38,061 bases of DNA from an uncultured Dehalococcoidales bacterium (GCA_964545665.1 CAZJGF010000002.1:1-38061); one strand, 5' to 3'; shown: positions 2,131 through 30,185, counted from the first letter of the stretch. The notes: generated by a model not told the origin, from the sequence alone. Numbers and translations are program-made.

Positions 2131-2802
2131 CTAAGAAGGGAGTACGCTTTTGACCAGCTTTCTAGCGATGATTCCGCAGACTTCCCTTATGTCCTCAGCG
2201 GGAAGGTAGTCGCTGATGCCGCTATCAAGCATCATGCTACCTCTGGGGGAAAACTCGTCATCGCCTCGCCACAGGGCTATGGTCACTGGCACACGGCTGA
2301 AAGCGTTGATAACCACAGATACGTCTCCATAATCTGCCTTTTGGCCACCCAGCTTCGCCGCTGCTTCCGGCAGTAGCTCAGGCTCGTCGCCGAATCGGTT
2401 CAAAAGAGGCACCACAGCCAGTTGCTGAAACACGGTGAAGTAGCTAGCGCATCCCGGCAGTTGCCCAAAGGTGATCATTCTGTTGGTGGCAGGGGTGCCC
2501 TTCGCCACCGTCAGATAGTGAAGTATCAGAATCTTGTCCCTCAGTGACAGCCCCTCGCCACTGTCCTGTAAACAAATTTCGCCGTCAGGAATGGTGACCA
2601 CACACGGCTGGCTCATATACTGAACCAGTATTCTGGTAACAGGCCGCTCCTTCACCTTGCTCCTGCCAATGACGTATTGGGCACCAGCTTTGCGACATAC
2701 TTCTGCTACGTCCATATGCAGCAACTGTTCGTAGGCAAGCCTATAAGCGAGCTCATGACCCTGGCCCCGCACGCTGGGCGATGATAAATGCTGCCCTGCC
2801 AT
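2131..2802 (-). CDS. DUF3786-like protein (family often found in Wood-Ljungdahl clusters)
   Basis: The track ORF 2131..2847 overlaps metF by 44 nt. An internal ATG at 2800-2802 lies 1 nt after the metF stop and gives MAGQHLSS.... The motif KILILHYLTVAKG...ITFGQLPGCASYFTVF matches my memory of DUF3786. Function unknown. Confidence 0.5.
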   Translation of the reverse strand: MAGQHLSSPSVRGQGHELAYRLAYEQLLHMDVAEVCRKAGAQYVIGRSKVKERPVTRILVQYMSQPCVVTIPDGEICLQDSGEGLSLRDKILILHYLTVAKGTPATNRMITFGQLPGCASYFTVFQQLAVVPLLNRFGDEPELLPEAAAKLGGQKADYGDVSVVINAFSRVPVTIALWRGDDEFSPRGSMMLDSGISDYLPAEDIREVCGIIARKLVKSVLPS

Positions 2803-2803
2803 T

Positions 2804-3733
2804 TCACCCTGTCGGTCTGGGCCGAGGCAAAAGACCTGCTGCCTCAACTATTTCAGGCACCGCCTCCTCCCATTCAATAGCCATAAGATGAATACCAGCG
2901 ACGCCTTCAATCTGGCGCAGCTCATTAATGATGTCCACACACAGCTTAATCCCCTCTTTCGAGACCTGCTCTTTGGGTACACCGCGGAGGCGCTCAATTA
3001 TCTCATCAGGGACATCCATCCCCGGGACTCTTGTCTTCATATATCTGGCTGCACCTACCGACTTTATCGGAGCAACTCCGGCAAGGATTCTTATCTTCTC
3101 ATGCAGTCCCTTATCACGCAGACGCCTCATCCACTCAGCGAACCTATCCACATTGTAGACAATTTGGGTCTGGATGAAATCTGCTCCAGCAGCTACCTTC
3201 TTGCCGAGACGAACTACTCTAAATTCAAATGGGTCGGCAAAGGGATTAGCAGCCGCTCCTATGAAAAGGCGCGGCTCAACTGTCATCTCCTCGCCGCACT
3301 GGAACTTCTTTTCGTCCCTCATATCTTTTACCACCTGGACAAACTGGATAGAATCGAAGTCAAAGACACCCTTAGCCTCAGGATGATTGCCGAATTTTTG
3401 ATGATCGCCAGTCAGGCATAGGACATTATTCATGCCCAGTGCGGCTATGCCCAATATGTCCATTTGAAGGGCAATGCGGTTCCGGTCTCGACAGGTCATC
3501 TGAACAATGGGGTCTAAGCCTTCCTCCTTGCCTATGAGACAAGCTGCCCAGCTTGGCATGCGCACCATAGCGGTTTGGCCGTCAGTAACATTAACGGCGT
3601 CAACATACTCTTTCAGTATTTTTGCCTTTCTGCGAACCACCTCGGGATCAGCACTTTGCGGCGGTCCCAACTCGCCAGTCACAGCAAATTGTCCAGCCTC
3701 CAGCACCCTTTCCAAGTTACTTCTTGTCTTCAT
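2804..3733 (-). CDS. metF: Methylenetetrahydrofolate reductase, acetogen-type MetF
   Basis: 309 aa MTHFR TIM-barrel pattern (FAVTGELGPP, NVTDGQTAMVRM, QMTCRDRNRIALQ, LCLTGDH, GADFIQTQIVYNV). AGGAGG lies 6 nt upstream of the ATG. Directly downstream of metV. Confidence 0.85.
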   Translation of the reverse strand: MKTRSNLERVLEAGQFAVTGELGPPQSADPEVVRRKAKILKEYVDAVNVTDGQTAMVRMPSWAACLIGKEEGLDPIVQMTCRDRNRIALQMDILGIAALGMNNVLCLTGDHQKFGNHPEAKGVFDFDSIQFVQVVKDMRDEKKFQCGEEMTVEPRLFIGAAANPFADPFEFRVVRLGKKVAAGADFIQTQIVYNVDRFAEWMRRLRDKGLHEKIRILAGVAPIKSVGAARYMKTRVPGMDVPDEIIERLRGVPKEQVSKEGIKLCVDIINELRQIEGVAGIHLMAIEWEEAVPEIVEAAGLLPRPRPTG

Positions 3734-3761
3734 AAATCCCTCCTAATGTTGCTTCTCTGAA

Positions 3762-4493
3762 TCAGAGCCCCAGTGCCTCTATTACCTTCTTCGTCTCCTT
3801 CAGTTTCTCCATAAGGTCAATAGGTTCAACTTCTAGTGTGCGTGGCCTTACTGCCTTGCTCCAATCATGTGGCGCCTTTATTTCCACCAATTCGTCCAAT
3901 GCTCCAAGTTTCTCTAATCTGCGGTAAATCATTACCCAAGCACAGTCACGCGTAGGGTCTACTTCACACTTGCCATCTATAGTCGTTCCACCACAGGGGC
4001 CATTCAGCAACCCCTTGGGACACTGCACCAACGGGCAAATACCAGCGGTTCGCCCCAGTTCGCATGCCCCACACGCCTGGCATTCCTCCTTAAAGCTAGC
4101 CGGACCCCCACCAGAAAACCCCAGAGCATCGTTTGCCGGGTACATAGGCTTTACAATGCCCATTTCCTCCTCCAGATATCCTCTCACCACCTGTGCCCCA
4201 TCGCCACAACTCTGCATTAACATGGCGTCGCACTCTTCTATCTCTCCCCTGTGTTCTTTCAAGAACATGGATGACATAGGAAGGTAGCAGGCAAATACCG
4301 CGAAGGGCAATTTAATCCTGCCTATGACCTCCTTTCCCTCTTTTGCCAGTCTCTCCGCCATTTCATCTATCTCTTTTGGACCGCCAGTATGAAAAATTGT
4401 AGCGCATCCTCCACAGCCCATTAGGACTATTTTTTTCTTACCCCGGAGATACTCTAGAACCTCTTCAAAGGGTTTTGGCGTTTGTGCATTCAT
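3762..4493 (-). CDS. metV: MetV (methylene-THF reductase C-terminal-domain / zinc-ribbon Fe-S subunit)
   Basis: 243 aa. C-terminal Cys pattern CQACGACELGRTAGICPLVQCPKGLLNGPCGGTTIDGKCEVDPTRDCAW is typical of the MTHFR_C/MetV family. AAGGAG Shine-Dalgarno (SD). 28 nt upstream of metF. Confidence 0.75.
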   Translation of the reverse strand: MNAQTPKPFEEVLEYLRGKKKIVLMGCGGCATIFHTGGPKEIDEMAERLAKEGKEVIGRIKLPFAVFACYLPMSSMFLKEHRGEIEECDAMLMQSCGDGAQVVRGYLEEEMGIVKPMYPANDALGFSGGGPASFKEECQACGACELGRTAGICPLVQCPKGLLNGPCGGTTIDGKCEVDPTRDCAWVMIYRRLEKLGALDELVEIKAPHDWSKAVRPRTLEVEPIDLMEKLKETKKVIEALGL

Positions 4494-4584
4494 TCCTTTC
4501 TCCTTAACTTATTTGTTCCGTGCCAAGAATAGGCATCCCGGGCTGACCAGCCGCTTTGAGAGCGCTTCTTGACCTGTGATGAGA

Positions 4585-5235
4585 TTAGCGGAGCCTCCTC
4601 ACTGGCGGGCCTGCAATGAGACTCACGCTCCAATTCTTTGGAGACACAATCCTCTCCAACTTGTCGAGTTGCCCTAATTCAGTCAGTCTCTCAATAATCA
4701 ATTGCCAGACGCATGGAATACTGGGATCAACTTCGCATTGGCCGTCATGCGAGCCACCACAGGGACCGTTAAGCAAATGCTTAGAACATCTGGCAATGGG
4801 ACAGATGCCACCGGTGAACTCTAACACGCACTCACCACATTCAAGACAACGCTCTGCTTCCTTCCACTCAGCATGACTCCCGCCTGAGGACAAGGTATTA
4901 CAGCCAGGATGTACCACCTTGTTTACCACCTCCGCTACAGTTTGCACCCCAGCGCCATCAGTCAGCACTAGCATGGAATCAGCAGCATTGATTTCACTTC
5001 TGTGAGCCCGTAGCGCCAACCTGGTCAATGTGCTATCACACAGCATATCGACGACCGCAGACCCAGTGATGGTTTTGCCCTGCTCTCGCAGAGTTTTCCC
5101 CATTTCCGCTACCTGCTTTTCACCACCACTTTGCCAGCCTTCAGCACACCCTTTACAGCCAATCAGAAAGACATTTGTCTCACCGTCAAGATAACTAAGG
5201 ATTTCTTCAAGTGGTTTCTGCTCCGAAATCAACAT
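4585..5235 (-). CDS. Second MetV-like protein (MetV paralogue)
   Basis: 216 aa with the same architecture as metV (LIGCKGCAEG ... CLECGECVLEFTGGICPIARCSKHLLNGPCGGSHDGQCEVDPSIPCVW). Its ATG (5233-5235) overlaps the stop of the hydrogenase protease (ATGTTGA), with AAGGAG 8 nt upstream. Confidence 0.7.
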   Translation of the reverse strand: MLISEQKPLEEILSYLDGETNVFLIGCKGCAEGWQSGGEKQVAEMGKTLREQGKTITGSAVVDMLCDSTLTRLALRAHRSEINAADSMLVLTDGAGVQTVAEVVNKVVHPGCNTLSSGGSHAEWKEAERCLECGECVLEFTGGICPIARCSKHLLNGPCGGSHDGQCEVDPSIPCVWQLIIERLTELGQLDKLERIVSPKNWSVSLIAGPPVRRLR

Positions 5236-5693
5236 CTTGCCTCTCCTTCACGACCTACATTACCCAACTCCGCCAATATCATCTTCACAATATGCGGCGT
5301 CTTCTCCCGAAGCTCGGGTGATAACTCCAGGCCCCATCCTATCTCCTTAGGCTCAACCGCAATTATGACAGTCTCCGGTACATTACGCCAAGCCTTGGTT
5401 AGCAGCAGATTAGCTACTAGAGTCATCTGGTGAAGGGATAGAATCGGCTGCTGGCCCAAAGCGATATCGCCAAGCTCAAAACGATAGACCTCGCCAGGCG
5501 TTCCTCCTGCTTTGGCAGCGTCCACCACAATCAACCTGTCAGTGTTCTCAGGGAACAACACTTCAGGCGATGTCCCGCCATCTATGACCTCTGTATCGGG
5601 AAGAGGAATTTGCTTCAGAGCCTGGGCAACATGACAGCCTATTCCTTCGTCCTTCAACAATATATTTCCTACTCCGAGAATTGTGGTCCCCAT
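5229..5693 (-). CDS. [NiFe]-hydrogenase maturation endopeptidase (HybD/HycI family)
   Basis: N-terminus MGTTILGVGNILLKDEGIGCHVAQ and later VIDGGT fit the family. The track ORF starts at a TTG (5720) that overlaps the large subunit. I prefer the ATG at 5691-5693, 4 nt after the large-subunit stop. Confidence 0.8.
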   Translation of the reverse strand: MGTTILGVGNILLKDEGIGCHVAQALKQIPLPDTEVIDGGTSPEVLFPENTDRLIVVDAAKAGGTPGEVYRFELGDIALGQQPILSLHQMTLVANLLLTKAWRNVPETVIIAVEPKEIGWGLELSPELREKTPHIVKMILAELGNVGREGEARC

Positions 5694-5697
5694 GCTG

Positions 5698-7257
5698 CTA
5701 ACAGATGCTGTATTTGCCAATGCTATTCCCCTTAGGGCTAACCAGGTGTACAGCGCAGGCTAGGCAAGGGTCGAACGAACGTACAATACGGACAATCTCA
5801 AAAGGGTTAGCTTCATCTTTTATCTTAGTTCCAGTGATAGCCTGTTCTAGGGGTCCAGGTTGGCCTTTATCATCTTCGGGAGAAATATTCCAACTAGATG
5901 GGGTAACAACTTGGTAGTTAGCGATCCTATTCTCCCTTATTTCTATCCAGTGCCCCAAGGCGCCCCTTGCTGCCCCAACCAGACCCATTCCCACTGCTTC
6001 CTCAGGGAGTCTATAGCTTATGTAAGCTGGGTCGCCGGGCTTCAGCTCCAAAACCCAATCAATCATCGAATCAGCTATTAGCTTTGTTTCCAGGGCCCGA
6101 GCAAGGTTACGCCCGGTGACAGAAAACATCGCGGCGGGTTTTACACCTAGCTGCGACAAAGCAGAGTCAAACAATTTCGTGACTTCCGGGTGGCCACCCG
6201 CATAGTTGACCATGATTCGAGCCAATGGCCCAACCTCAAAAGCCATTCCATCATAGCGGGGTGATTTTATCCAAGAGTAGGCTCCTTCCTTTTCCTCGTC
6301 AAGAATAGTGTCTCCCTGCGAGGGATGCTTGCCACTGATGGAGTCAGCGTACCAAGAATGCCTCACCTCTTCGGCAATTTTGCCCGGCTTGAATTCACCA
6401 AAACTAAGGTCAGTAGAAGTTATCCCTGGCTTAAAGAATCTATTCCGCTTGGTGAGGTCTGCTTCCTTTCCATCTAGCTCATAGGACCCATAGGCAAGCA
6501 ACCTGCCACAGCCACCTCCAATCTCAAGGTAATCTGGATAAGCCCGGGCTATCGCTAGTATGTCAGGAAGGTAAACATTGTCAATGAACTGCTGAAGTTC
6601 CTTCAACCTCCACAGAAAGGACGTTATGTTGTCTACAGTGGGAACGGAAGCAACTCCGCCAGGGAGAATCCCCATATTATGAGGCATCTTACCACCGAAA
6701 AGAGAGACAAGTTCCTGCCCTTTACGGCGCATATCGAATGCCTGAACATAGTGAGCTACTGCTTGTTGGTTAACCTTATCGGCCAGGCGATAATCACCTT
6801 CATAACGAGGAACAAACGGTCCCAGCTCACCTCTCTTGATGAAGCTTTTCAGCGAGTCCAGGGCGGGGTCATTGCCTTCATATTCTGCTATCTTGGCCAC
6901 ATCCACATAATCGAGGGCGGCAAGGTGATAGAAGTGAAGGATATGGTCTGCGATATGAGCTGCTCCAAGGATTAGATTGCGGATTATCCTTCCATTATCA
7001 GGTATTCGGTCGGCGATGCCAAAGGCACTATCCAAACTCAGGGCAGCTGCAACAGAATGGCTAGTGGGACAAACTCCACAGATACGCTGAGTTATCCGCT
7101 GGGCGTCACGAGGATCCCTGCCCTTCATGATTAACTCTAAGCCTCGGAATAGCATCCCCGAGCTCTTAGCCTCTTTTACCTCGCCGTCGTCAATCACTGC
7201 CTCTACCTTGAGATGTCCCTCAATGCGAGTTACCGGATCAATTACGATCTTGCCCAT
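5698..7257 (-). CDS. [NiFe]-hydrogenase large subunit, uptake-type (group 1/2-like)
   Basis: 519 aa. N-terminal TRIEGH and RICGVCPTSH. C-terminal DPCLACAVH followed by a 16-aa extension (LVSPKGNSIGKYSIC), a substrate for the adjacent protease. Confidence 0.9.
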   Translation of the reverse strand: MGKIVIDPVTRIEGHLKVEAVIDDGEVKEAKSSGMLFRGLELIMKGRDPRDAQRITQRICGVCPTSHSVAAALSLDSAFGIADRIPDNGRIIRNLILGAAHIADHILHFYHLAALDYVDVAKIAEYEGNDPALDSLKSFIKRGELGPFVPRYEGDYRLADKVNQQAVAHYVQAFDMRRKGQELVSLFGGKMPHNMGILPGGVASVPTVDNITSFLWRLKELQQFIDNVYLPDILAIARAYPDYLEIGGGCGRLLAYGSYELDGKEADLTKRNRFFKPGITSTDLSFGEFKPGKIAEEVRHSWYADSISGKHPSQGDTILDEEKEGAYSWIKSPRYDGMAFEVGPLARIMVNYAGGHPEVTKLFDSALSQLGVKPAAMFSVTGRNLARALETKLIADSMIDWVLELKPGDPAYISYRLPEEAVGMGLVGAARGALGHWIEIRENRIANYQVVTPSSWNISPEDDKGQPGPLEQAITGTKIKDEANPFEIVRIVRSFDPCLACAVHLVSPKGNSIGKYSIC

Positions 7258-7261
7258 TGGT

Positions 7262-8128
7262 TCAAACCTCCTCTGGCAAAGAGGCTGTGCTTAGCTTTTC
7301 ATAAATCGGGGATATGTCAAAGAATTCAGGCTCTGTGCAGCCAATACATGTAGCACCACAACCCACACACCAATTCACTCCGTTGTTCCACAACCTTAAG
7401 GGACAATCAGCATGGGTCACTGGCCCCCTGCATCCTAATTCATAGTTACATCCTGGTTCGCCAAACTTCTTAGCAAACTTATTCTCATCGTAGTAGGCTC
7501 GCCGCGGGCAGTTTTCATGGATTGTTTGACCATAAAAAGCTTTAGGGCGCCTATATTCGTCCAAGTCCTCCGGCTTGGGTAAGCCTGAAAGCAAGATGCT
7601 TGCCACCGTGCCCACAAACCAAGCAGGATGCGGTGGGCAGCCTGGAATATTTACCAATGGAGTGCCGATGCCCCGGGCTCGGAGAACGTCACCAACACTG
7701 AGGCACTGGGTAGGGTTAGGATAAGCGGCAGGGATTCCCCCAAAGGCAGCACATGATCCCAGGGCAATGACTGCGAGGGCATCCTTAGCTAACTCCTCTA
7801 CTCGTGACAGCATGGTGACAGGCTTTCCATCTCTCTCGCTCACTACTCCGTGGATGCCGCCTTTAGCTGTGGGAATAGCCCCCTCTACAATCAAGATATA
7901 ACCACCCCTTTTCTCCTTTGCTGTACCCTCCATAACTTCAATCACGGGCTCTCCTGCCCCTGCCATTACAGTGGAATGGACCCGCAGATTTATATGTTTG
8001 CCTGGAAGAATCTCATCAACTAGGAGGTTTTTGATAGAGGGATTTGTAGTATTGAGAAGTGAGACCGAGCACCCAGTGCAGGCAGCACATTGAAGCCATA
8101 TTGCCGGGTATTCCTTCACCGCCGTCAT
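7262..8128 (-). CDS. [NiFe]-hydrogenase small subunit, no twin-arginine signal (cytoplasmic)
   Basis: 288 aa. It starts directly at the proximal-cluster region (IWLQCAACTGCSVSLLN). Distal cluster region is GCRGPVTHADCPLRLWNNGVNWCVGCGATCIGCTEP. No RRxFxK motif at the N-terminus. Confidence 0.85.
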   Translation of the reverse strand: MTAVKEYPAIWLQCAACTGCSVSLLNTTNPSIKNLLVDEILPGKHINLRVHSTVMAGAGEPVIEVMEGTAKEKRGGYILIVEGAIPTAKGGIHGVVSERDGKPVTMLSRVEELAKDALAVIALGSCAAFGGIPAAYPNPTQCLSVGDVLRARGIGTPLVNIPGCPPHPAWFVGTVASILLSGLPKPEDLDEYRRPKAFYGQTIHENCPRRAYYDENKFAKKFGEPGCNYELGCRGPVTHADCPLRLWNNGVNWCVGCGATCIGCTEPEFFDISPIYEKLSTASLPEEV

Positions 8129-8306
8129 AACGTTCCTGTCGATTCTGGTAGTCTGGTTATTGTACTATCCTTGACAAAAGAAGACGCCTATCTTCACTTG
8201 AATTCTTTCCACAACCGCCACTGCTCTCGGCTACTCCTAACCTGAGAACAACGGCCACCATTTTCATCTCCCCACTTGGCTGAAAACTACCCCCTTCCTT
8301 GTATTC

Positions 8307-8789
8307 TCAACGCAACAGGGCACGGTGCGCCCAGCCGATCTCCTCCAGGACAAGATTTATAACTTCTGGGACAGTCTCTGTTGCCTTTGCTGTCATTTCT
8401 TCGGTAAACTCAGTCACCTGTCCAACCCCTATAGCAAATATCACCATTTCTTTTGGCATTTGATTTGCTGCAAATCTCCGGCCAAACTCAATTGCAGTGG
8501 CGAAGTTCATGCCATGCGGCCAACTGGTCTGATCCACCGTGTTCACCAAATCTTCGAGCCGCAGCTTATATATTCCACCTATGTCTCCACTCCCAGTCTC
8601 AATTGCATCAATTATGATTACCTTGTCGTATCCAGCGATGTTTTCCAACAAACCTAAGCCACTTGTGTCGGCGTCCATCACATCAATCTTCTCGTCGTTA
8701 ATCCTTTTGGCCAACTCCTGAGCAACGTGGACGCCTATGCCATCATCTCCCAAGATTGCGTTTCCTATACCCAGAATAAGCGTCTTCAC
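8307..8789 (-). CDS. [NiFe]-hydrogenase maturation endopeptidase (second copy)
   Basis: 160 aa, MKTLILGIGNAILGDDGIGVHVAQ ... IIIDAI. Immediately downstream of the mvhA-like gene. Confidence 0.85.
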   Translation of the reverse strand: MKTLILGIGNAILGDDGIGVHVAQELAKRINDEKIDVMDADTSGLGLLENIAGYDKVIIIDAIETGSGDIGGIYKLRLEDLVNTVDQTSWPHGMNFATAIEFGRRFAANQMPKEMVIFAIGVGQVTEFTEEMTAKATETVPEVINLVLEEIGWAHRALLR

Positions 8790-8795
8790 TTCAGT

Positions 8796-10265
8796 TCAGA
8801 ATCGGCTCAGCCTTTTTATCTCATTGCTCTCTGAATCGCAAATGACAATCTCCAAAGGCATCTGTCCTGGCAGCGCATGCGTACCACAGGCCATACAAGG
8901 GTCATAGGCTCTGAACGCCATCTCAATCATATTAAGAAGACCATCTGAGACCTCGCCTTTGTGTATAAGTGACTTGGCGGCTTTCTCAACTGACATAACA
9001 ATGGGAGCCATGTTGTTTGTCGTGGCCACAATCAAGTTAACTCCGGTAAGAATCCCCGTCTCATCGGTTTGATAGTGATGGAAAAGGGTACCCCTTGGGG
9101 CTTCTACCACCCCAACGCCCTCTTTGGGAGTCTCAGTCGGCAGATTAACAATATCAGAAGAGGTAAGTTCAGGATCACGAGCAAGCTCCAACACCCTTTC
9201 TGAGGCATACAATGCCTCGACCAGCCGAGCCCAGTGGAAAGCCAGGGTATTATGGACCGGTTTTCCCCCCAGCGTTTCAAACAGTTTTTCATAAGCTTCT
9301 TGTGCCAGCGGCGTGGCCATTCCGTCGGATGCATTCAGCCTGGCCAGCGGAGCTACTCTGTAAATGCCACTATCTTCTCCATCGGTAAATCCCTTCCAGC
9401 CGACGTTTTTAAGATAGCAGAACTTCATATAACTCCAGGGCTCAACGTGCTCCCTGATGTGGTCTAGATATTCCTGGGGCCTGAATTTGGCAAATTCTTT
9501 GCCATCCGGGTCAACCACTCTAATCATGCCATCATAGAAATTCACCTTATTATTCTCATCCACCAGCCCCATATAGTAAGTCCTATGCTTGTAGACATCC
9601 CCGGTAATCAGGTCAACATAATCTTTATTCTTCAGCACTACATCATCAAAAGCCTTGAGGGCAAATTGGCAGAAATCCACTGCATATTCCCCCGCCTCTA
9701 TGAGGGTCTTCCTCTCCTCCTCAGTAATCGCTTTTGACACCCCTCCAGGCAGCCCGCAGCTAGGCATGACCGGCTTCCCTCCGATTATTCTGACAACATT
9801 CCGCAGCCTTTTCCTAGCTTCTATTACTTTCCCACCGACTTCCAGGCCAACTTTGCCAATAACTCCCAAGATATTTCTTTCTGCGGTGGCCGCTGTCGGG
9901 CCAACAAAAAAGTCGGGACCAGCGAGGTAGAAGAAGTGCAATAAATGGTCCTCCGCCTGAAAAGCATTGTACATCAGCCTCCTTATTTTCTTTGCTGTCG
10001 AGGTTGGCTCCACTTTCCAAAGGTCATCCAGGGTCTTGGTCGAGGCCATGTGGTGAGCAGTAGGACACACCCCACAAATCATGGTGGTTATTCTCGGCAT
10101 CTCCTCTGCCGGCCTTCCCTCACAGAACTTCTCAAATCCTCGAAGCTCAGGGATCTGAAGATAAGCCCTATCAACATCTCCGGCGGCATTGAGAAATATT
10201 TCTATCTTGCCGTGCCCCTCAAGTCTGGTTATCGGGTCTATGGTTATTTTTCTCATTCTACTCAT
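8796..10265 (-). CDS. mvhA: F420-non-reducing (Mvh-type, group 3c-like) [NiFe]-hydrogenase large subunit
   Basis: 489 aa. TRLEGHGKIEI, MICGVCPTAHH, C-terminal YDPCMACGTH plus extension. Lies in the mvhD-G-A gene order. Confidence 0.8.
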   Translation of the reverse strand: MSRMRKITIDPITRLEGHGKIEIFLNAAGDVDRAYLQIPELRGFEKFCEGRPAEEMPRITTMICGVCPTAHHMASTKTLDDLWKVEPTSTAKKIRRLMYNAFQAEDHLLHFFYLAGPDFFVGPTAATAERNILGVIGKVGLEVGGKVIEARKRLRNVVRIIGGKPVMPSCGLPGGVSKAITEEERKTLIEAGEYAVDFCQFALKAFDDVVLKNKDYVDLITGDVYKHRTYYMGLVDENNKVNFYDGMIRVVDPDGKEFAKFRPQEYLDHIREHVEPWSYMKFCYLKNVGWKGFTDGEDSGIYRVAPLARLNASDGMATPLAQEAYEKLFETLGGKPVHNTLAFHWARLVEALYASERVLELARDPELTSSDIVNLPTETPKEGVGVVEAPRGTLFHHYQTDETGILTGVNLIVATTNNMAPIVMSVEKAAKSLIHKGEVSDGLLNMIEMAFRAYDPCMACGTHALPGQMPLEIVICDSESNEIKRLSRF

Positions 10266-11242
10266 TTCATCCTCTTTCTTCTCAGTAGCGAAGATGGCAA
10301 GCTGAATCTGTAGAACGTACCCGCCGGGTCTACAATTTGATCAACTAGTTTTTGGACTTCTTCCTCTGTCATCTTCTCTTCGCCTTCAAGTCCCACTATG
10401 GAGGCGATTGCTGACAGTGCTTTCGCCCCTTGGTCTACAACCCCATCTACGGGACCAAAACAGCCCCGGCAGGGCATATTGGCTCTGATGCATGTTTCCC
10501 CACATCCCGAACGGGTGGCGGGGCCAAGGCAAATCAGTCCTTGCACCAGGAAGCATTTCTCAGGGTCGATTTTGATCTGCCACGGCCTTTTTACCGCTGC
10601 TATGGATAATTTCTCCGGTTTTGTCTCATTCCGTGGGCATGTATCGCACAGAGCTTTATTAGGGGCAAGCACCGCCCCTTTCTCCGGCAGATTCCCTGTG
10701 AGAATGGCATTGACAGCATCCATTACTAAATTGGGTGGTGGTGGACATCCGGGGAGGTAGTAATCTACAGGAATGGTTTGGTCCAATGTCTTTACCGTAT
10801 CATAGAATTCCGGTAAGGTAAGCTCACCAATTCCGATATCCGTCTTCTCTTGAGGAAGAGTTCCCTCTGGATTCTCAGTGGACGGAGTCTCTTTATAAGC
10901 TCGGCGAAAGATTGTATCCCTTGTCCAGAAATTCCCCAGTCCGGGTATCCCCCCTAGGTGAGCACAAGAACCAAAGGCGACCACAAGGCCGGATTTCTCC
11001 CTCAGGAGTTTTACCATCTCCTCTTGCTCTTCCAACCTTATGGCCCCGTTTATAAAGCTTACCGCTATCTCCTTATCGCCTAAAGCCTCAATGTCTTTCC
11101 TCTTGAAGTCCAAGGCTACGGGCCATAATACTATATCTACAGCATCCGCTACCTTCAGTATATCTTCATTGAGGTCAACCACTGTCTCTTCACATCCACC
11201 GCAGGAAGCGTTCCAATAGAAAGCAATCTTCGGTTTCGCCAT
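10262..11242 (-). CDS. mvhG: Mvh-type [NiFe]-hydrogenase small subunit
   Basis: I prefer the ATG at 11240-11242 (MAKPKIAFYWNASCGGCEE), with GGAG 8 nt upstream and lying after the mvhD stop. The track start at 11275 would overlap mvhD. No signal peptide. Multiple Fe-S Cys motifs (CPRNETKPEK..., CLGPATRSGCGETC, CRGCFGP). Confidence 0.8.
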   Translation of the reverse strand: MAKPKIAFYWNASCGGCEETVVDLNEDILKVADAVDIVLWPVALDFKRKDIEALGDKEIAVSFINGAIRLEEQEEMVKLLREKSGLVVAFGSCAHLGGIPGLGNFWTRDTIFRRAYKETPSTENPEGTLPQEKTDIGIGELTLPEFYDTVKTLDQTIPVDYYLPGCPPPPNLVMDAVNAILTGNLPEKGAVLAPNKALCDTCPRNETKPEKLSIAAVKRPWQIKIDPEKCFLVQGLICLGPATRSGCGETCIRANMPCRGCFGPVDGVVDQGAKALSAIASIVGLEGEEKMTEEEVQKLVDQIVDPAGTFYRFSLPSSLLRRKRMK

Positions 11243-11246
11243 ATTG

Positions 11247-11672
11247 TCATCTCCGATATGCTGTTTTACCAGCAAAAGGCCCTAGCTCTTTTATTTTCGC
11301 TGTCATGTCATTGGCTACCTGTGCGAAGTGGTTTGCCTCAGAGGCAGATATCCACTCTAGGCTTACTCGCTCCTCGTCAACCCCCAGTTGCTTCATCATT
11401 TTCTTCAGTATAGCAACACGCCGCGCTGCCTTATAGTTCCCCGTCCTGTAGTGGCAGTCTCCAAAATGGCAGCCGCCAATCAATACTCCATCTGCACCCG
11501 TCTGAAGGGCTGCAAGCACAAAGGTGGGCTCAACCATCCCACTGCACATAACTCGAACCACCATCAGATTGGAGGCATACTGAATACGCAACATACCAGC
11601 TAAATCAGCTCCAGCATAGGCACACCAATTGCATAGAAAGGCGACTATCTTCGGCTTGAAACCGCTCATCAT
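11247..11672 (-). CDS. mvhD: MvhD ([2Fe-2S] hydrogenase/Hdr adaptor subunit), copy 1
   Basis: 141 aa. FLCNWCAYAGADLAG, VMCSGMV, GGCHFGDCHY. GGAGG lies just upstream of the tandem ATGs (the second ATG at 11669 is possibly the real start). Confidence 0.85.
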   Translation of the reverse strand: MMSGFKPKIVAFLCNWCAYAGADLAGMLRIQYASNLMVVRVMCSGMVEPTFVLAALQTGADGVLIGGCHFGDCHYRTGNYKAARRVAILKKMMKQLGVDEERVSLEWISASEANHFAQVANDMTAKIKELGPFAGKTAYRR

Positions 11673-11791
11673 TACCTCCTTCCAAATATTGAGTTGTCAG
11701 CCATCTTTCCTGGCCAAACACGTTCGGGCCAGATTGGTCTGCCGCTCCAGCGCAAGTGATAACCTTCAGCCGCTGTCAGGCGAGCGGAGCT

Positions 11792-11822
11792 AGTATAGCA
11801 CATGCGAGGGCAGTCGTATCAA
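11792..11822 (-). promoter_or_regulatory. Candidate sigma-70-type promoter with extended -10 for the mvhDGA operon
   Basis: Minus strand reads TTGATA (11817-11822), 19-nt spacer, TGC-TATACT (-10 at 11792-11797). About 115 nt upstream of the mvhD ATG. Sequence pattern only. Confidence 0.35.
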
Positions 11823-11876
11823 CCTCCCCGTGACCAGCGTAGGAGTCCTCAGCACACATCTTCATGGACCAACCAT

Positions 11877-11906
11877 AGAAGCTAGAGGCAGCTGCCTCTA
11901 GCTTCT
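11877..11906. repeat. Perfect 30-bp palindrome AGAAGCTAGAGGCAG|CTGCCTCTAGCTTCT
   Basis: I verified base by base that the two 15-nt halves are exact reverse complements. It sits ~55 nt upstream of the candidate -35 element in the 498-bp intergenic gap. No T-tract follows on either strand. Confidence 0.9.
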
Positions 11907-12170
11907 GCAAGGCCAGCATCACAGAGAAAGACTGATCCCCGCCAGCCCAGCTGAGCTATACCCCACTCACACAGCGCGTCCTCACTCGACGTATCATCCT
12001 ATGCTGTGGACAACCCTTCTTCCGCTCAATCACCTACCACGCAATGCAAAAAGGGCTAGCCCACAGGAGGCCAAGAATGTGAAGACATTTAGCAGAAAAC
12101 ACAGATTACCAAGAATTTGCTGAGACCACGAGTCCCCTGGTAATGGACTGAATAAAGTGCGATTTCGGTA

Positions 12171-13277
12171 TTACCCGACGGCCGCGAATTCCTCCGGCCT
12201 GAATGTAGTAAGCGGGAGCCCCTCCTCCATATCTTTCCCTGGAAGATAACCATAAGCTTTCTGAACCGATTCGGCTACTCTCAAGGAAATGGCCCACAGC
12301 GGAATACTGGCGGGACACACATCAGAACACATACCACATCCCACACACGATGTGCTTACGTGGGATAGCCTCACCAGGTGGTAGAATATCGTGTCAGGAA
12401 AAGCCTCCACACTTCCCCTTCTTTCTAGCTGTGTTGCGTAGTAAACCGCATCATGTTCACTAGCCTCACTGTCGAAAAAGCATAAGTGGCAATAACAGAT
12501 GGGGCAGACCTTGCTGCAGTTGTGGCAGCCTATGCATTTGCTGAAGGCCTTGTTCAGTTCATCAATACCAAGGTTCCTTATTTCAGTTTCATCAAACAGT
12601 TTCTGCTTCTCACTCTCTCTCTGGCCCCTTATTCGTTCCATTGCTCCAGAATCGAACTCTTCTTCAGTGAACTCTCCCGACATACCTTCAAGCAAGTTCT
12701 CCCCTCTGTCAGTGTTGAGAAGTATCACCGTTTCTCTGTCAATGTCCTTGTTTCCCAGTAAGGACACGGTGATATCAGCAGTGTAAGGTATAAAATGCTC
12801 ACATGCCTTACAGGCAGGCCTTATCCCAGGACTCACTTCACCTTGTTTGACCGCTTCCCAGTATTGAGGTAGCTTTTCCTCAATCTTATCCTCGAGTGCC
12901 AGTTCCAATGGGTAGACTCCGCCACAGGTTGAGCTTATGAGTAACAGGTTGTCAGTGCTCCCCTGCTGCCGCTTCACCAGCTCTACGAATGCTCTTAATT
13001 CGCAAGGTCTTAGCACCACCGCAATCGGTTCAGTGGCTGCTTCCCTTAGAGTAAGAAGGGATAGCAACTTGCCGCTGTTTACCGGCATTAGAGGATACAG
13101 CGGCCGGGCATAGTCGAGTTCATCAGGACTGGAAATAAGGGAGTAAGCCACAGCCCCATTCTCACCGATCTTCCTCAAAGTCAAAACCCCTTCCACCTTG
13201 CCGTTCTCTAGGAGGAATTTGGCCATTTCTTTCACGCTTTGCTCTGGGCTTTCGCTCAACCTTAAGACCCTAGGCAT
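12171..13277 (-). CDS. Fe-S protein of the FlxB/FlxC / AsrA / sulfhydrogenase-beta (HydB) type
   Basis: The track ORF extends to 13343, but the ATG at 13275-13277 has AAGGAG 7 nt upstream and overlaps the upstream stop by 8 nt (ATGCCTAG). Motifs: VVLRPCELRAFVELVK, CIGCHNCSKVCPICYCHLCFFD, CVGCGMCSDVCPASIP. The family name is from memory. Confidence 0.55.
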   Translation of the reverse strand: MPRVLRLSESPEQSVKEMAKFLLENGKVEGVLTLRKIGENGAVAYSLISSPDELDYARPLYPLMPVNSGKLLSLLTLREAATEPIAVVLRPCELRAFVELVKRQQGSTDNLLLISSTCGGVYPLELALEDKIEEKLPQYWEAVKQGEVSPGIRPACKACEHFIPYTADITVSLLGNKDIDRETVILLNTDRGENLLEGMSGEFTEEEFDSGAMERIRGQRESEKQKLFDETEIRNLGIDELNKAFSKCIGCHNCSKVCPICYCHLCFFDSEASEHDAVYYATQLERRGSVEAFPDTIFYHLVRLSHVSTSCVGCGMCSDVCPASIPLWAISLRVAESVQKAYGYLPGKDMEEGLPLTTFRPEEFAAVG

Positions 13278-14427
13278 CTTGCTTCTCCTTGGCAGAAAAC
13301 ACTGAATGGGACTGCTCCACCTCCTGGAATTCGCCTTGCTCAAAAGTCGTTAACGGCAGAGCTTCGTCTATACTCCTACCAGATAGGTAACCGAAGGCCT
13401 CTTGGTTTCTATCACCAACTAGGCTGAAGATTTGCCCTACCGTGATATTCATGGGGCAGGCGTCCTCACACATCCCGCATGACACACAGGAGAGAGACAT
13501 ATGTAACATACGTCCAATATGGAAAAACAGAGTATCGCTGGGAAGCTTCACCACACCTCTTGCCTTTGCCCTCGTAAGGTAATCTTCAAAATTGAATTTC
13601 ATTTTGTCCGAATCGAAATGACACTGGCGGCAGTAACATATGGGGCAGACCCTCATACAGTTGTGGCAGTTTATGCATCTACTAAAGCTTTCTAGTAGCC
13701 TGTCTATACCCTCAATCTCGCTTCTTAGCCCGTTGTGAGACTCGTTCCTTTTCTGCTTTCTTTCCTGAGTCAGCCTCTCCACTCCACTTTCCCAACTCGA
13801 TATATTGTCCTCCATTGAAAGACCGAGCTTGCTCAAGACACTTTCGCCTTTACCGCTGCTGGGGATAAGGACCATAGTGCCATCCTTTGCACCCAAGGTT
13901 CCTACATGCAAGTCTTCAGCACCCGTGGTAGAGAATCTGTCACATATGTTGCACACTGGCCGCATAGGTTCACTATTCCAGTTCCGGGAAGCATCTCTGA
14001 ACGTCCTATCACCGTTTTCGGCGCTCGTGAAATAGTCAGATAGAGGCATTACTCCCGGGCAGTCCACAGTCACAAGGATTATGTCCTCCAGGTTTGCCTG
14101 TCCAAGCTTAGCCAGTTCAACTGTCGCCCTTGCCTCGCAGGGTCGCATCACAGCAGCAATGCTCTTGTTCCCTTTACCACGTCTGGTAATGCTAGAAATG
14201 GCTCTGGCTCCCTGAACTGGCATAATTGGAGGTAACGGAGACGCTGCTTCAAGAAGCGCCTCATCTCGGATCAGTGAGTAGGCGACTGAATCTCCTGCCG
14301 ACACCCTAGTTGGGATGAGGACAGCGTCAAAACAACCTTGGCTTAATGCTTGCTTCATAAAGTCAAGGACCCCTCTTTCCACATCCCCTTCTGACAGGTA
14401 GATTGTTCCCTTCCGAGTAGGTGTCAC
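13270..14427 (-). CDS. Fe-S protein of the FlxB/FlxC / AsrA / HydB-beta type (paralogue of 12171-13277)
   Basis: Motifs AAVMRPCEARATVELAKLGQ, CINCHNCMRVCPICYCRQCHFD, CVSCGMCEDACPMNI. GAGGAG lies 7 nt upstream of the GTG at 14425-14427; the alternative GTG start at 14442 is the one used by the track. Confidence 0.55.
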   Translation of the reverse strand: MTPTRKGTIYLSEGDVERGVLDFMKQALSQGCFDAVLIPTRVSAGDSVAYSLIRDEALLEAASPLPPIMPVQGARAISSITRRGKGNKSIAAVMRPCEARATVELAKLGQANLEDIILVTVDCPGVMPLSDYFTSAENGDRTFRDASRNWNSEPMRPVCNICDRFSTTGAEDLHVGTLGAKDGTMVLIPSSGKGESVLSKLGLSMEDNISSWESGVERLTQERKQKRNESHNGLRSEIEGIDRLLESFSRCINCHNCMRVCPICYCRQCHFDSDKMKFNFEDYLTRAKARGVVKLPSDTLFFHIGRMLHMSLSCVSCGMCEDACPMNITVGQIFSLVGDRNQEAFGYLSGRSIDEALPLTTFEQGEFQEVEQSHSVFSAKEKQDA

Positions 14428-14476
14428 GTTACAACTCCTCACATGTTCCCAATAGTTTGCTCATAAGCCCACATAC

Positions 14477-16174
14477 TTACCTTACTAGTTCCACAACTTC
14501 TTGATAGATCTGCGGGAAGCCAAAATTCTTTACACTGGCAGCTCCAGAGGGACAAGTAGCAGCACAGACCCCGCATCCATGACACAAAGCTTCGTTCACC
14601 ACTGCAATTCTCCTCACTTCGTCAAAGCTGATGGCAGAGTAAGGGCAGACTGAGATACACATTTTGCATCCAGTGCAGAAAGTCTCCGAAATTTCAGAGG
14701 TTCTCACTTCCAACTCCAACTTTCGGCCTGGAACAAGGGATGAGAGTATCTTACCTGCTGCTGCCTCTGATTGAACTATCGTCTCCGAGATATTCTTTGG
14801 CCCCTGGGCACACCCGACCACAAATACTCCCTCCACAGAAGACGCCACTGGACCCAGCAACTGGTGCTCTGCAACAGGGAAACCCTCCTCGTCCAGAGGG
14901 ATACCAAGCATTTCAGCGAACCTATTAGTATCACCGCTGGGTTCCATCGCCGGCACAAGGATTACCATATCTACTGCAAGCTCCTCTTCCGAACCGTTTT
15001 CAGTTTCGTATTTCACAGCTATTGCCTTGGTATTTTGGGTAACCGTAGTCTTCGCAGCGCGTACAAAGTTGATCCCTAAGTCCTTTGTCTCTTCGTAGAA
15101 CTTCTGGTAGGACTTCCCTGGAATGCATAGGTCTGAGTAGAGTTGAGATACCTTTACGTCGGGAAGCTGGGACTTCAACATCCTGGCAAATTTAAGTGAA
15201 TACACGCAGCACACCTTGGAACAATAGCCCTTCTCTTCTCGCCCAACACAATGGATAATAGCCACAGATTCAGGACTCTTGCCGTTTTTGAGCAGAATCT
15301 TCCCCCCACTAGGTCCGCTTGGCATATTCATCTGCTCAAATTCCAAGCTCGTATAGACATCATCACGCTTTCCGTACCCATATTGAGGGAGACCCGTTGG
15401 GTCCATCAAGTCGAAGCCGGTAGCTAAGATGACTGCTCCCACGCTTAGATTCCGCTCCCCATTTTCCCCTTTCTTCGTTACTTTTGCCTCAAAATTGCCA
15501 AAGAAGCCCAAGATTTGCTCAACCTCACTATCAGTAAGCTCTTCGATATTCTTGGCTCCTAGCAGTCTCTTCACTTCTTTTTCTATCAATACTGAGCCAG
15601 AATCCATAGCGGTAAACAGCTTGTCAAACTCCTTTACTTTGCCTCCCAAAGAAGGACTCTTCTCAACCAGATAGACCCTTCTGTCTGGGGAACCAAGCAG
15701 CTGGCTAGCCTTAATTCCGGCAATGCCACCGCCGATTATCAGCACATCGGGACAAACGTCCATCTCCTTCTTTTCCAGAGAAACTTGCCAGCGAACTCTA
15801 CTGATAGCGGCTCTTATTTGCCTTATTGCCTTTTCTGCAGCCTCTTCCTTGTCTGAGGTGACCCAGGCACATTGTTCCCTGATATTCACCATCTGCAATA
15901 GGTAGGGGTTGAGACTAGCTTCCTCACACACATTCATAAAAGTCATTTCGTGCTGCTTAGGAGAACAGGCTGCAAGCACCAAATGGGTCAAGTCATGCTC
16001 CTTGATGCTTTGCTTTAGGAATTCCTTCCCAGCCTCAGAACACAAGAGCCCGTATTTCTCGACAATTGCGACATCACGAAGCGGCGAAACAGCTTCAATT
16101 ACTCTATCAATATTCACATTGTCGGCTATATTAGTGCCACACTCGCATACATATACGCCTATCCTTTTTCCCAT
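14477..16174 (-). CDS. hdrA: HdrA-like flavoprotein: N-terminal [4Fe-4S] domain + TrxR-like FAD fold + C-terminal 2x[4Fe-4S] ferredoxin, but no inserted ferredoxin domain
   Basis: 565 aa. IGVYVCECGTNIA, VLIIGGGIAGIKAS, IIHCVGREEKGYCSKVCC, C-terminal CTGCKMCISVCP...CHGCGVCAATCP. The segment where HdrA normally has TFPTNDC..C plus the inserted ferredoxin is replaced by Cys-free sequence. Confidence 0.8.
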   Translation of the reverse strand: MGKRIGVYVCECGTNIADNVNIDRVIEAVSPLRDVAIVEKYGLLCSEAGKEFLKQSIKEHDLTHLVLAACSPKQHEMTFMNVCEEASLNPYLLQMVNIREQCAWVTSDKEEAAEKAIRQIRAAISRVRWQVSLEKKEMDVCPDVLIIGGGIAGIKASQLLGSPDRRVYLVEKSPSLGGKVKEFDKLFTAMDSGSVLIEKEVKRLLGAKNIEELTDSEVEQILGFFGNFEAKVTKKGENGERNLSVGAVILATGFDLMDPTGLPQYGYGKRDDVYTSLEFEQMNMPSGPSGGKILLKNGKSPESVAIIHCVGREEKGYCSKVCCVYSLKFARMLKSQLPDVKVSQLYSDLCIPGKSYQKFYEETKDLGINFVRAAKTTVTQNTKAIAVKYETENGSEEELAVDMVILVPAMEPSGDTNRFAEMLGIPLDEEGFPVAEHQLLGPVASSVEGVFVVGCAQGPKNISETIVQSEAAAGKILSSLVPGRKLELEVRTSEISETFCTGCKMCISVCPYSAISFDEVRRIAVVNEALCHGCGVCAATCPSGAASVKNFGFPQIYQEVVELVR

Positions 16175-16185
16175 TTCGCAACCTC

Positions 16186-17466: not shown

Positions 17467-17490
17467 TATTACCTGTTACCTCCGTCGCTC

Positions 17491-17925
17491 TCATAATAGG
17501 GCCTTTCCCAAGCGACTTGGCCCCAACTTTCTTACCTGCTCGGCAAACCGGTTAGTTACCTCAGCAAACCTCTGCCCTTCTGATGCTGAAACCCAGGCTA
17601 GCATAAACCTTTCCGGTTCCAGTCCCAGCGTTTCCACCGTTTTCTCCAAAAGAGCAAACCTACGGCGAGCATAGTAATTTCCCTCTCGGTAGTGGCAATC
17701 GCCTGGGTGGCACCCAGCAACAAATACCCCGTCAGCCCCCCGTAGGTATGCAGTAGCCATGAGAGCCGGCTCCACCCTTCCAGAGCACATTACTTTGATA
17801 ATCGAAACGGAACCAGGCACCGTTTGCTTCGTTGCCCCAGCAAGGTCAGCAGCCGCATATGAGCACCAGTTGCAGAGGAACCCAACTATCTTGGGTGTGA
17901 ATTCTCCCTCCATGGATATGCCCAC
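17491..17925 (-). CDS. mvhD: MvhD, copy 2
   Basis: 144 aa. FLCNWCSYAAADLAG, VMCSGRV, AGCHPGDCHY. Start uncertain (GTG at 17925 or ATG at 17913). Confidence 0.85.
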   Translation of the reverse strand: MGISMEGEFTPKIVGFLCNWCSYAAADLAGATKQTVPGSVSIIKVMCSGRVEPALMATAYLRGADGVFVAGCHPGDCHYREGNYYARRRFALLEKTVETLGLEPERFMLAWVSASEGQRFAEVTNRFAEQVRKLGPSRLGKALL

Positions 17926-17928
17926 AAA

Positions 17929-18153
17929 CTAGAACTGTATCTGTGCCTTGAACTTTCCTCCCCCCTGGTCAGCGCAGAACAGCAATGTCTTTTTCATCCT
18001 GGCACACCATGCTTCAATATCCTTGGGGAAAGACTCACAATCAGCCAGCACTTCTAATGTATCTCCAGCGGGAATACTCTTGGCCATCGCTGCCACTTTC
18101 AGTACCGGCTGGGGACACTTAAGTCCCAGTACATCCAAAGTGTGTAGTGCCAT
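17929..18153 (-). CDS. tusA: TusA/SirA-family sulfurtransferase
   Basis: Conserved LGLKCPQPVLKV (Cys-Pro-x-Pro) motif. The ATG at 18151-18153 has AGGAGG 5 nt upstream (the track starts at GTG 18159). 74 aa. Confidence 0.8.
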   Translation of the reverse strand: MALHTLDVLGLKCPQPVLKVAAMAKSIPAGDTLEVLADCESFPKDIEAWCARMKKTLLFCADQGGGKFKAQIQF

Positions 18154-18176
18154 GTTCACCTCCTAATTATTTCAGT

Positions 18177-18530: not shown

Positions 18531-18634
18531 GATTCACCTCCTTTCTTGCGCTACAACTTGGAACAGGTACAGTGCTTTATTTGCCTGCCGCTGCTTCCAT
18601 AGCTCTCCACCAGCGGCAAATGTTGGTCGCAGGC

Positions 18635-20780: not shown

Positions 20781-20781
20781 T

Positions 20782-30167: not shown

Positions 30168-30185
30168 ATCTACTCCAGCTTGTCG

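Follow-up and report, generated by a model that had tools for sequence, protein, structure and literature searches.

Which electron donor feeds the MetVF-type methylenetetrahydrofolate reductases (MTHFRs), and how their reaction is coupled to energy conservation, is a long-standing question in acetogen bioenergetics (PMC8760232). The same question is raised by a locus of an uncultured Dehalococcoidales bacterium, located on a stretch of 38,061 nucleotides (nt) (GCA_964545665.1 CAZJGF010000002.1:1-38061) that was analysed as a whole and is further referred to as the window. Between positions 2131 and 8128, its minus strand holds seven packed genes, coding in this order for the small subunit (SSU) and the large subunit (LSU) of a [NiFe] hydrogenase, a protease, a MetV protein of 216 amino acids (aa), another MetV of 243 aa, MetF and a DUF3786 protein. 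Based on sequence comparisons, we favour with moderate confidence the proposal that these seven genes specify one soluble, cytoplasmic H2:methylene-tetrahydrofolate (THF) oxidoreductase, working preferentially in the direction of H2 uptake. If this is true, H2 itself would be the donor of a MetVF reductase, and the enzyme would be the equivalent, on the methyl branch, of the hydrogen-dependent CO2 reductase (HDCR). The module is common in Dehalococcoidia, a group counted among the most abundant bacteria in both marine and freshwater sediments.

The components of the block, in the order of transcription, are:

8129-8306, minus strand: upstream spacer of 178 nt, from the protease gene of an Mvh operon to the SSU gene, containing one long hairpin and another that is weak and terminator-like
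7262-8128, minus strand: [NiFe]-hydrogenase SSU, 288 aa (PF01058, Oxidored_q6, and PF14720, NiFe_hyd_SSU_C; TIGR00391 at 238 bits, cut-off 179.5)
5698-7257, minus strand: [NiFe]-hydrogenase LSU, 519 aa (NF033181 at 696 bits, cut-off 600; PF00374, NiFeSe_Hases, E = 5e-152)
5229-5693, minus strand: maturation endopeptidase of the HycI/HybD family, 154 aa (PF01750, E = 1e-20; TIGR00072 at 124 bits)
4585-5235, minus strand: hydrogenase-linked MetV, 216 aa (PF12225, E = 7e-34)
4494-4584, minus strand: spacer of 91 nt between the MetV genes, its 3' end being the Shine-Dalgarno sequence AAGGAG of the 243-aa MetV
3762-4493, minus strand: canonical-type MetV, 243 aa (PF12225, E = 4e-31)
2804-3733, minus strand: MetF, the catalytic subunit of methylene-THF reductase, 309 aa (PF02219, full profile, E = 4e-44)
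2131-2802, minus strand: DUF3786 protein, 223 aa (PF12654, E = 7e-42)

All seven open reading frames (ORFs) have the order, strand and family given in a preliminary description of the locus. The mechanical ORF of the protease covers 5229-5720, with a likely ATG at 5693, and the same 154-aa start is also called on identical contigs; the ORF of DUF3786 covers 2131-2847, with a likely ATG at 2802, right after the MetF stop. Gaps between successive genes of the block amount to 4, 4, -7, 91, 28 and 1 nt, the negative value corresponding to the ATGTTGA in which the protease stop overlaps the ATG of the 216-aa MetV. This overlap, as well as the AAGGAG ahead of that ATG, had been reported before, and both are present in the sequence. 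In regard to a possible separation of the hydrogenase from the met genes, raised beforehand as an objection, promoter and terminator consensus scans of the window gave counts equal to chance expectation and no promoter- or terminator-like site inside the block, the 91-nt spacer has no better a fold than its shuffled versions (z = -0.25), and an Rfam scan found no Rfam family in the window, this spacer included. The 178-nt spacer upstream has a fold z of -2.0 and, read from the sequence, a weak terminator-like hairpin (GAAGAU-AGGC-GUCUUC, then UUUUGU), which, for lack of G-C pairs, escaped the terminator scan; this spacer is a possible 5' boundary of the block's transcript.

The linkage of these genes was followed from both sides. 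On the MetV side, one genome per GTDB species was scanned with an alignment of 216-aa-type MetVs, and the closest 80 loci (the species loci) were annotated by tblastn, while on the hydrogenase side metagenomes were scanned with an LSU alignment and the closest 80 loci, with an LSU 64-98% identical, were taken. Overall, about 140 independent loci from at least three bacterial phyla have the same arrangement. SSU and LSU genes are colinear and directly upstream of MetV in all species loci with more than 3 kb of upstream sequence (68/68), LSU or protease is immediately upstream of it in all with more than 700 nt (77/77), and MetF is found within 4.5 kb downstream of MetV in 63 of the 64 that have sufficient sequence. 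The upstream stop overlaps the MetV start in 39 of 78 species loci and is at a distance of at most 42 nt in 77 of them. Starting from the hydrogenase, a 216-type MetV is located at most 900 nt downstream of LSU in 61/62 metagenome loci with sufficient sequence, followed by MetF in 38/39 of these. The synteny search in other genomes, suggested in the preliminary description as a check, thus finds a linkage that is conserved from either side. The closest species-representative genome is a Dehalococcoidales metagenome-assembled genome (MAG) with a MetV 86% identical to that of the window, and proteins identical to the window's were found only on sediment-metagenome contigs.

The block is present in Dehalococcoidia, Syntrophobacteraceae and Nitrospirota/Thermodesulfovibrionales, and in the SSU+LSU tree Syntrophobacteraceae and Nitrospirota each form one clade nested among Dehalococcoidia. 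Its surroundings are of several kinds. In about 25 Dehalococcoidia species loci, it is embedded in a Wood-Ljungdahl supercluster, CdhC-CdhD-NuoE-NuoF-CooC-[block]-formate dehydrogenase (the acs-embedded loci, named after the acetyl-CoA synthase/carbon monoxide dehydrogenase, acs/CODH, genes). In other species loci, about 30 of the 80 and including some Dehalococcoidia and all Syntrophobacteraceae loci, a histidine kinase (HisK) binding cyclic nucleotide monophosphates (cNMP) stands between MetV and MetF, and a pair of response regulators comes after. Syntrophobacteraceae have in addition a separate HdrA-MvhD-MetV-MetF cluster just upstream of the hydrogenase block. The Mvh/Hdr genes upstream of the block in the window are common to L065 and L093, the latter belonging to the same population as the window, while Hdr genes are missing from the vicinity of most of the 80 species loci. 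Since the flanks differ while the block stays, we regard it, at the level of gene organization, as a module that does not depend on Hdr and is mobile, or autonomous at the least.

Two-component wiring of MetV/MetF was seen repeatedly (L009, 12733-15630; L069-L089; L178; P0372), the arrangement with the kinase between MetV and MetF and the two regulators in three phyla. P0372 is a fusion of MetV and a histidine kinase with 527 aa, while P0361 is a 546-aa MetV-MetF fusion with a kinase and regulators in its flanks and no hydrogenase.

The window contains two MetV proteins, 41% identical to each other, which raises the question of which one belongs to the hydrogenase. Most loci have a single MetV, and this is of the 216-aa type, being 62-86% identical to the 216-aa protein of the window and about 41% to the 243-aa one. 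A 243-aa-type MetV occurs in 11 of the 80 species loci; in other bacteria and in archaea, MetF is the sole partner of its wider family and no hydrogenase is linked to the pair, as on a bacterial contig and on a Euryarchaeota contig, where MetV and MetF of this kind (L175, 7001-8661) are accompanied by MtrBCDE and a gene with an MCR_C domain. The archaeal homologues of the 243-aa MetV (L175, P0301, P0308 and P0324, with names that include Bathyarchaeota and Methanomethylicota) are 64-69% identical to it. Because single-MetV loci carry the 216-aa type, and the 243-aa family stands without hydrogenase, the 216-aa MetV is, judged by its distribution, the conserved core partner of the hydrogenase, and the 243-aa MetV an optional canonical extra. 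The labels used in the preliminary description are thereby reversed: the protein introduced there as a second or extra MetV is the invariant partner, and the one named "metV" is confined to those eleven species loci.

The 216-aa family has twelve invariant Cys, of which eleven are invariant across both MetV families. Its subfamily is about 40% identical to canonical and Hdr-linked MetVs, the top representatives in a representative-library search with MetV are at most 47% identical, and the hydrogenase linkage of MetV relatives is gone below about 50% identity. Cys112, within the motif HPGC, is invariant in 60 aligned hydrogenase-linked MetVs and not present in the Hdr-linked and 243-aa MetVs compared; it was rejected as a marker of hydrogenase-linked MetVs, being found also in distant MetVs of other context (P0361, P0363, P0365). 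Among solved structures, no relatives of MetV were found. An AlphaFold2 model of the 216-aa protein (mean predicted local distance difference test score, pLDDT, 81.8) has a confident N-terminal alpha/beta domain and a less confident Cys-rich half, and a Foldseek comparison of this model with the PDB gave only generic matches of the Rossmann or periplasmic-binding-protein-like kind, with template-modelling (TM) scores of 0.3-0.37.

Co-evolution of the components, expressed as correlations of pairwise distances without correction for phylogeny, was followed in 60 loci and in a small subset of 18 acs-embedded ones. In the 60 loci, the coefficients are r = 0.95 for SSU-LSU, 0.92 for SSU-MetV and 0.88 for LSU-MetV. 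In the acs-embedded subset, SSU, LSU, MetV and MetF correlate mutually with r = 0.92-0.99, compared with 0.57-0.78 towards the adjacent CdhD and NuoF. The correlation of MetV with the hydrogenase subunits is within 0.88-0.97 across both sets, and identity of MetF between sub-clades is 40-88%. Such a pattern fits a MetV that would behave as a hydrogenase subunit and a MetF that would be a partner swapped between sub-clades. In regard to the gene copies, five Dehalococcoidia loci (L013, L015, L036, L053, L115) have two MetF genes per block, a short one, about 42% identical to MetF of the window, right after the MetVs, and another, about 60% identical, after the histidine kinase. The NuoE/NuoF-like pair in the acs/CODH cluster, 2-3 genes upstream of the block (L007, 2418-4900; L011, 5824-8237; about 25 loci of L013-L092), has no obvious catalytic partner, and it follows CdhD (CdhD-NuoF r = 0.93) more closely than it follows the hydrogenase (0.74-0.77).

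The hydrogenase itself has features of a catalytic enzyme. Among solved structures, SSU is closest to the NiFeSe SSU of Desulfomicrobium baculatum (1cc1_S, E = 1e-77). Ligands for three [4Fe-4S] clusters can be assigned in it, C17/C20/C126/C164 for the proximal, C242/C254/C261/C264 for the medial and H204/C207/C227/C233 for the distal one, and each of the 12 is kept in 98-100% of the 60 family members compared; with four Cys at the medial cluster, a feature of NiFeSe/1a enzymes, the chain is all-[4Fe-4S]. LSU is of the Cys type, with motifs RICGVCP (L1) and DPCLACAVH (L2), and the Ni-Fe ligands C60, C63, C498 and C501 as well as H504 are invariant in the family. Its C-terminal extension of 15 residues past His504 fits the adjacent endopeptidase gene. 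The best solved relatives of LSU are periplasmic Desulfovibrio enzymes (1h2a_L, E = 1e-130; 5jsu_B, E = 9e-129), and scores are far lower with the group 2a enzyme of Mycobacterium (7utd, 213 bits) and the group 1h enzyme of Ralstonia (5aa5, 167 bits). Judged by similarity to solved structures and profiles, the hydrogenase is thus catalytic and group 1a/1b-like; of the former designation "group 1/2-like", the first half holds and the second does not.

As Buhrke et al. reportedly described in 2005, gas-channel positions are Ile/Phe in H2 sensors and Val/Leu in catalytic enzymes. The corresponding residues of the window LSU are Val62, in CGVC, and Leu112, in HFYHL. A sensory (HupUV/HoxBC, group 2b) type, mentioned in the preliminary description as an objection, was considered for the window enzyme and rejected: sensors of group 2b lack both the extension and the endopeptidase, have the Ile/Phe channel and a cognate kinase, and none of this fits the window block, the structure matches of which are to group 1. 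Shorter versions of LSU do occur in the Nitrospirota/Thermodesulfovibrionales locus L077 (2871-4376), in which it ends 4 residues past the C-terminal His, and there, as in L079 and L088, no protease gene lies between LSU and MetV.

In regard to the location of the enzyme, SSU aligns with 1cc1_S from mature residue 5, its alignment to the NiFeSe small-subunit profile begins at position 38, and its ORF starts 4 residues ahead of the mature N-terminus position of 1cc1_S, with no in-frame upstream extension. Since SSU aligns from the mature N-terminus and the ORF is not extendable upstream, the twin-arginine (Tat) signal is absent, as had been stated before, and there is no space for one in any of the 69 family members. 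Consequently, the enzyme is cytoplasmic. SSU has no C-terminal membrane anchor, and no gene for a cytochrome b, cytochrome c3, HybA or Isp-type partner is present in or beside the block, MetV being in the partner position. By these signs, the enzyme is a group 1 hydrogenase that has lost both export and its usual redox partner.

Taken as one complex, the components could work as follows. The group-1a-like [NiFe] heterodimer, matured by its own endopeptidase, would oxidise H2 at the Ni-Fe site, and electrons would pass through the proximal, medial and distal SSU clusters to the Cys-rich 216-aa MetV, which would stand in for the cytochromes or membrane subunits of other group 1 hydrogenases. From there, they would reach the flavin of MetF, where methylene-THF would be reduced to methyl-THF for the Wood-Ljungdahl pathway. 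Within the window's lineage, the 243-aa canonical MetV would be placed between the hydrogenase-linked MetV and MetF, probably forming the usual MetV-MetF core, and DUF3786 would be an accessory protein. The latter is a frequent but non-universal last gene, found downstream in 30 of the 58 species loci with sufficient flank; a structure search gave no solved relative and a full-text search no literature on it. MetF matches solved MTHFRs with E = 1e-14.

The energetics can be estimated from E0' values of -414 mV for H+/H2 and -200 mV for methylene-/methyl-THF (PMC8760232, PMC6295475). The calculated standard free energy of H2 oxidation with methylene-THF is about -41 kJ/mol, while at 1 Pa H2 the hydrogen couple would be at about -266 mV and about 13 kJ/mol would be left. 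Because the reaction comes near equilibrium at about 1 Pa, direct coupling without bifurcation would not be wasteful at the H2 levels of sediments, and both directions could be open to the enzyme.

Several observations weigh against a single H2:methylene-THF oxidoreductase. Over the whole family, MetF distances correlate with those of the hydrogenase only with r = 0.60-0.65, and as MetF lineages also vary, MetF is more exchangeable than MetV. Two loci (L064, L086) have hydrogenase and MetV without an adjacent MetF, and one (L129) is hydrogenase-protease-HisK-MetF without MetV. Further, the roles of the 243-aa MetV and DUF3786 are unaccounted for, the adjoining Mvh/Hdr cluster could give other electron routes, and at high H2 direct coupling would waste about 41 kJ/mol, a loss avoided by known acetogens.

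The alternative that survives best, although we consider it unlikely, is that the same complex operates in reverse, oxidising methyl-THF and venting the electrons as H2, and thus serves as a redox valve for the oxidation of acetate or methyl groups at very low H2. Published remarks on such clusters concern syntrophic acetate oxidisers, for which H2 production was proposed (PMC6295475, PMC10608574), and, calculated from the E0' quoted in PMC6295475, the reversed reaction would be near equilibrium at about 0.1-1 Pa H2. Also in its favour, Syntrophobacteraceae, which carry the module, are a syntrophic family. On the other hand, group 1 [NiFe] hydrogenases are typically biased towards uptake, and making H2 from a -200 mV couple would need less than about 0.01-0.1 Pa H2 or very skewed folate ratios. 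Placement of the block between acs/CODH and formate dehydrogenase genes in many Dehalococcoidia is compatible with either direction.

It could also be supposed that the H2:methylene-THF oxidoreductase is electron-bifurcating, converting 2 H2, methylene-THF and oxidised ferredoxin into methyl-THF and reduced ferredoxin, as a bacterial, folate-dependent analogue of MvhADG-HdrABC in which methylene-THF would replace the heterodisulfide and its exergonic reduction by H2 would drive the endergonic one of ferredoxin; this we hold to be improbable, and the same applies to the idea that the extra MetV or the NuoEF-like neighbours would form the second branch. The lineage of the window does have two MetV paralogues, acs-embedded relatives have NuoE/NuoF-like genes just upstream, Hdr/MvhD bifurcation modules are numerous in the organism, and the energetics are permissive, with +214 mV downhill versus about 40-90 mV uphill. 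However, the conserved core consists of one MetV and one flavoprotein, MetF, with no flavin of HdrA, NuoF or EtfAB type, NuoEF is present neither in the window nor in HisK-type loci, and purified MetVF enzymes have shown no bifurcation (PMC8760232). If it were true, the abundant subseafloor Dehalococcoidia would be able to draw on trace H2 for low-potential electrons with which to reduce CO2, and the question of how MetVF-type reductases couple to energy conservation would be answered.

Similarly doubtful is a self-contained cytoplasmic unit of hydrogenase and 216-aa MetV, the latter of which would hand the electrons on to ferredoxin or another soluble carrier, with MetF only co-regulated within a Wood-Ljungdahl regulon and not physically coupled. 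This would agree with MetV tracking the hydrogenase more closely than MetF does, with the two loci devoid of an adjacent MetF, and with the swapping of MetF lineages between sub-clades. Nevertheless, MetF follows in nearly all loci seen from either side, across three phyla and three flank contexts, and H2, at -414 mV or above, is a poor reductant of ferredoxin without energy input. Moreover, MetV homologues are otherwise known only as partners of MetF (PMC8760232 and the loci studied here).

An H2 sensor that would signal via MetV, a histidine kinase and response regulators to the expression of metF or the Wood-Ljungdahl genes is very improbable: the kinase and regulators of about 30 species loci, the existence of the MetV-kinase fusion and the Nitrospirota LSUs without C-terminal extension and protease gene would suit it, but no kinase or regulator stands within the block in the window or in acs-embedded loci, LSU has a cleavable extension with a dedicated protease and the Val/Leu residues of the catalytic type, it resembles catalytic group 1 and not group 2b, and the two-component system goes with MetVF and not with the hydrogenase, because HisK and response regulators also flank MetV-MetF pairs devoid of hydrogenase (L176, L178).

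Beyond the block, the window is occupied mainly by the following genes:

8307-11672, minus strand: complete Mvh-type operon (F420-non-reducing, group 3c-like), MvhD-MvhG-MvhA-protease, 178 nt upstream of the block
11247, 17491, 18635 and 26372, minus strand: four MvhD/FlpD paralogues, the first (11247-11672) belonging to the Mvh operon
11700-31334, minus strand: Hdr/Fdh array of about 20 kb with genes of the flavin-based-bifurcation type, beyond the Mvh operon
Within 11700-31334, minus strand: two HdrBC-like CCG proteins
12171-14442, minus strand: two paralogous FrhB/Fer4 proteins of 390 aa
18177-18530, minus strand: DsrE-like protein
22202-24253, minus strand: molybdopterin formate dehydrogenase, Cys type
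26799-30167, minus strand: HdrA-GltD fusion, 1122 aa, among several HdrA-like genes of the array

The preliminary description was right in naming a hydrogenase as the neighbour of the met genes, but it left unmentioned that Hdr and MvhD, the partners in type IV reductases, are found upstream in the window. HdrA genes begin at 14477, and the whole Mvh operon stands between the Hdr genes and the block. This operon is also beside the block in L065 and L093, and on the opposite strand in L060. Further upstream, two response-regulator receiver proteins are encoded on the minus strand (31742-32770 and 32820-35060), their first approximately 140 residues being about 85% identical by eye; the first has Cys-rich C-terminal repeats, and the other, of 746 aa, is a fusion that combines the receiver with a GltD-like NAD(P)H flavoprotein domain and a pair of ferredoxin-type clusters. 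The gene at 35662-36765 (minus strand, 367 aa) matches only the sigma-54 DNA-binding domain (PF04552), with no match to the N-terminal or core-binding domain reported. Downstream of the block and convergent with it, the plus strand codes for what by eye looks like a radical-SAM enzyme of the MoaA type (178-1146) and a MoaC-like protein with an extra C-terminal domain (1143-2081).

In the published scheme, none of the MTHFR types I-IV includes a hydrogenase, and the couplings of MetVF discussed so far, to Rnf or Ech, are hypothetical (PMC8760232). Within this scheme, the met genes of the block are of the MetVF type, a PF02219 MetF being encoded with a PF12225 MetV that bears the conserved Cys. 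They are alike type II MetVF of Clostridium ljungdahlii, Thermoanaerobacter kivui and Eubacterium callanderi (PMC8760232, PMC8515935) in having MetF beside a Cys-rich PF12225 MetV and no NAD(P)H-binding subunit, so that electrons would have to enter MetF via the Fe-S centres of MetV, described as a protein with Fe-S and zinc and as a strong stimulator of MetF (PMC8760232). The block differs from type II in the upstream [NiFe] hydrogenase and protease, translationally coupled to a dedicated MetV subfamily, and, in the window, in holding a canonical-type MetV as well. In regard to type III (MetFV-RnfC2), no Complex1_51K/RnfC-like gene is present in the block, and NuoF-like genes occur 2-3 genes upstream in acs-embedded relatives only. 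Type IV, MetFV-HdrABC-MvhD of Moorella thermoacetica, likewise has MetFV encoded with a larger electron-input module and also occurs in related uncultured Chloroflexi; an Hdr-type MTHFR was described in single-cell genomes of marine Chloroflexi that contained no hydrogenase (PMC5736913). The conserved module described here, in contrast, is without HdrA, HdrBC and MvhD, its input being the hydrogenase. An interpretation of the met genes as a plain type IV (Hdr) reductase was discarded, as relatives keep the block amid quite different flanks, mostly without Hdr.

On the hydrogenase side, periplasmic group 1a/1b [NiFe] and [NiFeSe] enzymes of Desulfomicrobium baculatum (1cc1) and Desulfovibrio vulgaris (5jsu/1h2a) are the best sequence relatives and share the Ni-Fe ligands and endopeptidase processing, while the all-[4Fe-4S] SSU chain with its four-Cys medial cluster is shared with the [NiFeSe] enzymes. 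The hydrogenase of the block differs from them by having no Tat signal, Cys in place of selenocysteine, and MetV in place of the cytochrome or Isp partner. Genome papers on 'Ca. Syntrophonatronum acetioxidans' (PMC6295475) and 'Ca. Contubernalis alkaliaceticus' (PMC10608574) mention briefly that metF adjoins a NiFe hydrogenase devoid of a Tat signal, and their authors suspected a direct role of this hydrogenase in the (reverse) Wood-Ljungdahl pathway. These are single-genome remarks on Firmicutes, one assigning the hydrogenase to 'group 5' and one proposing NADH as the donor for H2 formation; no dedicated MetV was recognised, no comparative analysis was made and no class was proposed, and we liken them to the block by co-localisation only. 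The preliminary description, which knew of no MTHFR type with a dedicated hydrogenase and an extra MetV, is therefore correct in that our full-text literature search gave no description of the module as a class and no biochemical characterisation, and needs amending in that the pairing of hydrogenase and metF had been remarked on. A metagenome survey, the source of the L060 MAG, has read group 1a/1b matches as respiratory uptake hydrogenases (PMC6472368). For the hydrogenase clade of the module, such a reading, as hydrogenotrophic respiration or dehalorespiration, is probably wrong.

The closest known system in terms of logic is HDCR of Acetobacterium woodii and T. kivui, in which, as Schuchmann and Muller are said to have described in 2013, small Fe-S subunits join a Wood-Ljungdahl reductase directly to a hydrogenase, with no soluble carriers. 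In both cases, H2 would directly drive one step of the Wood-Ljungdahl pathway, but HDCR combines an [FeFe] hydrogenase with a formate dehydrogenase, acts on CO2/formate, and consists of protein families unrelated to those of the block. The module would then be a candidate fifth type of MTHFR, which, depending on the side from which it is viewed, could be described as a MetVF reductase with a hydrogenase input, or as a group 1 hydrogenase whose cytoplasmic partner is new.

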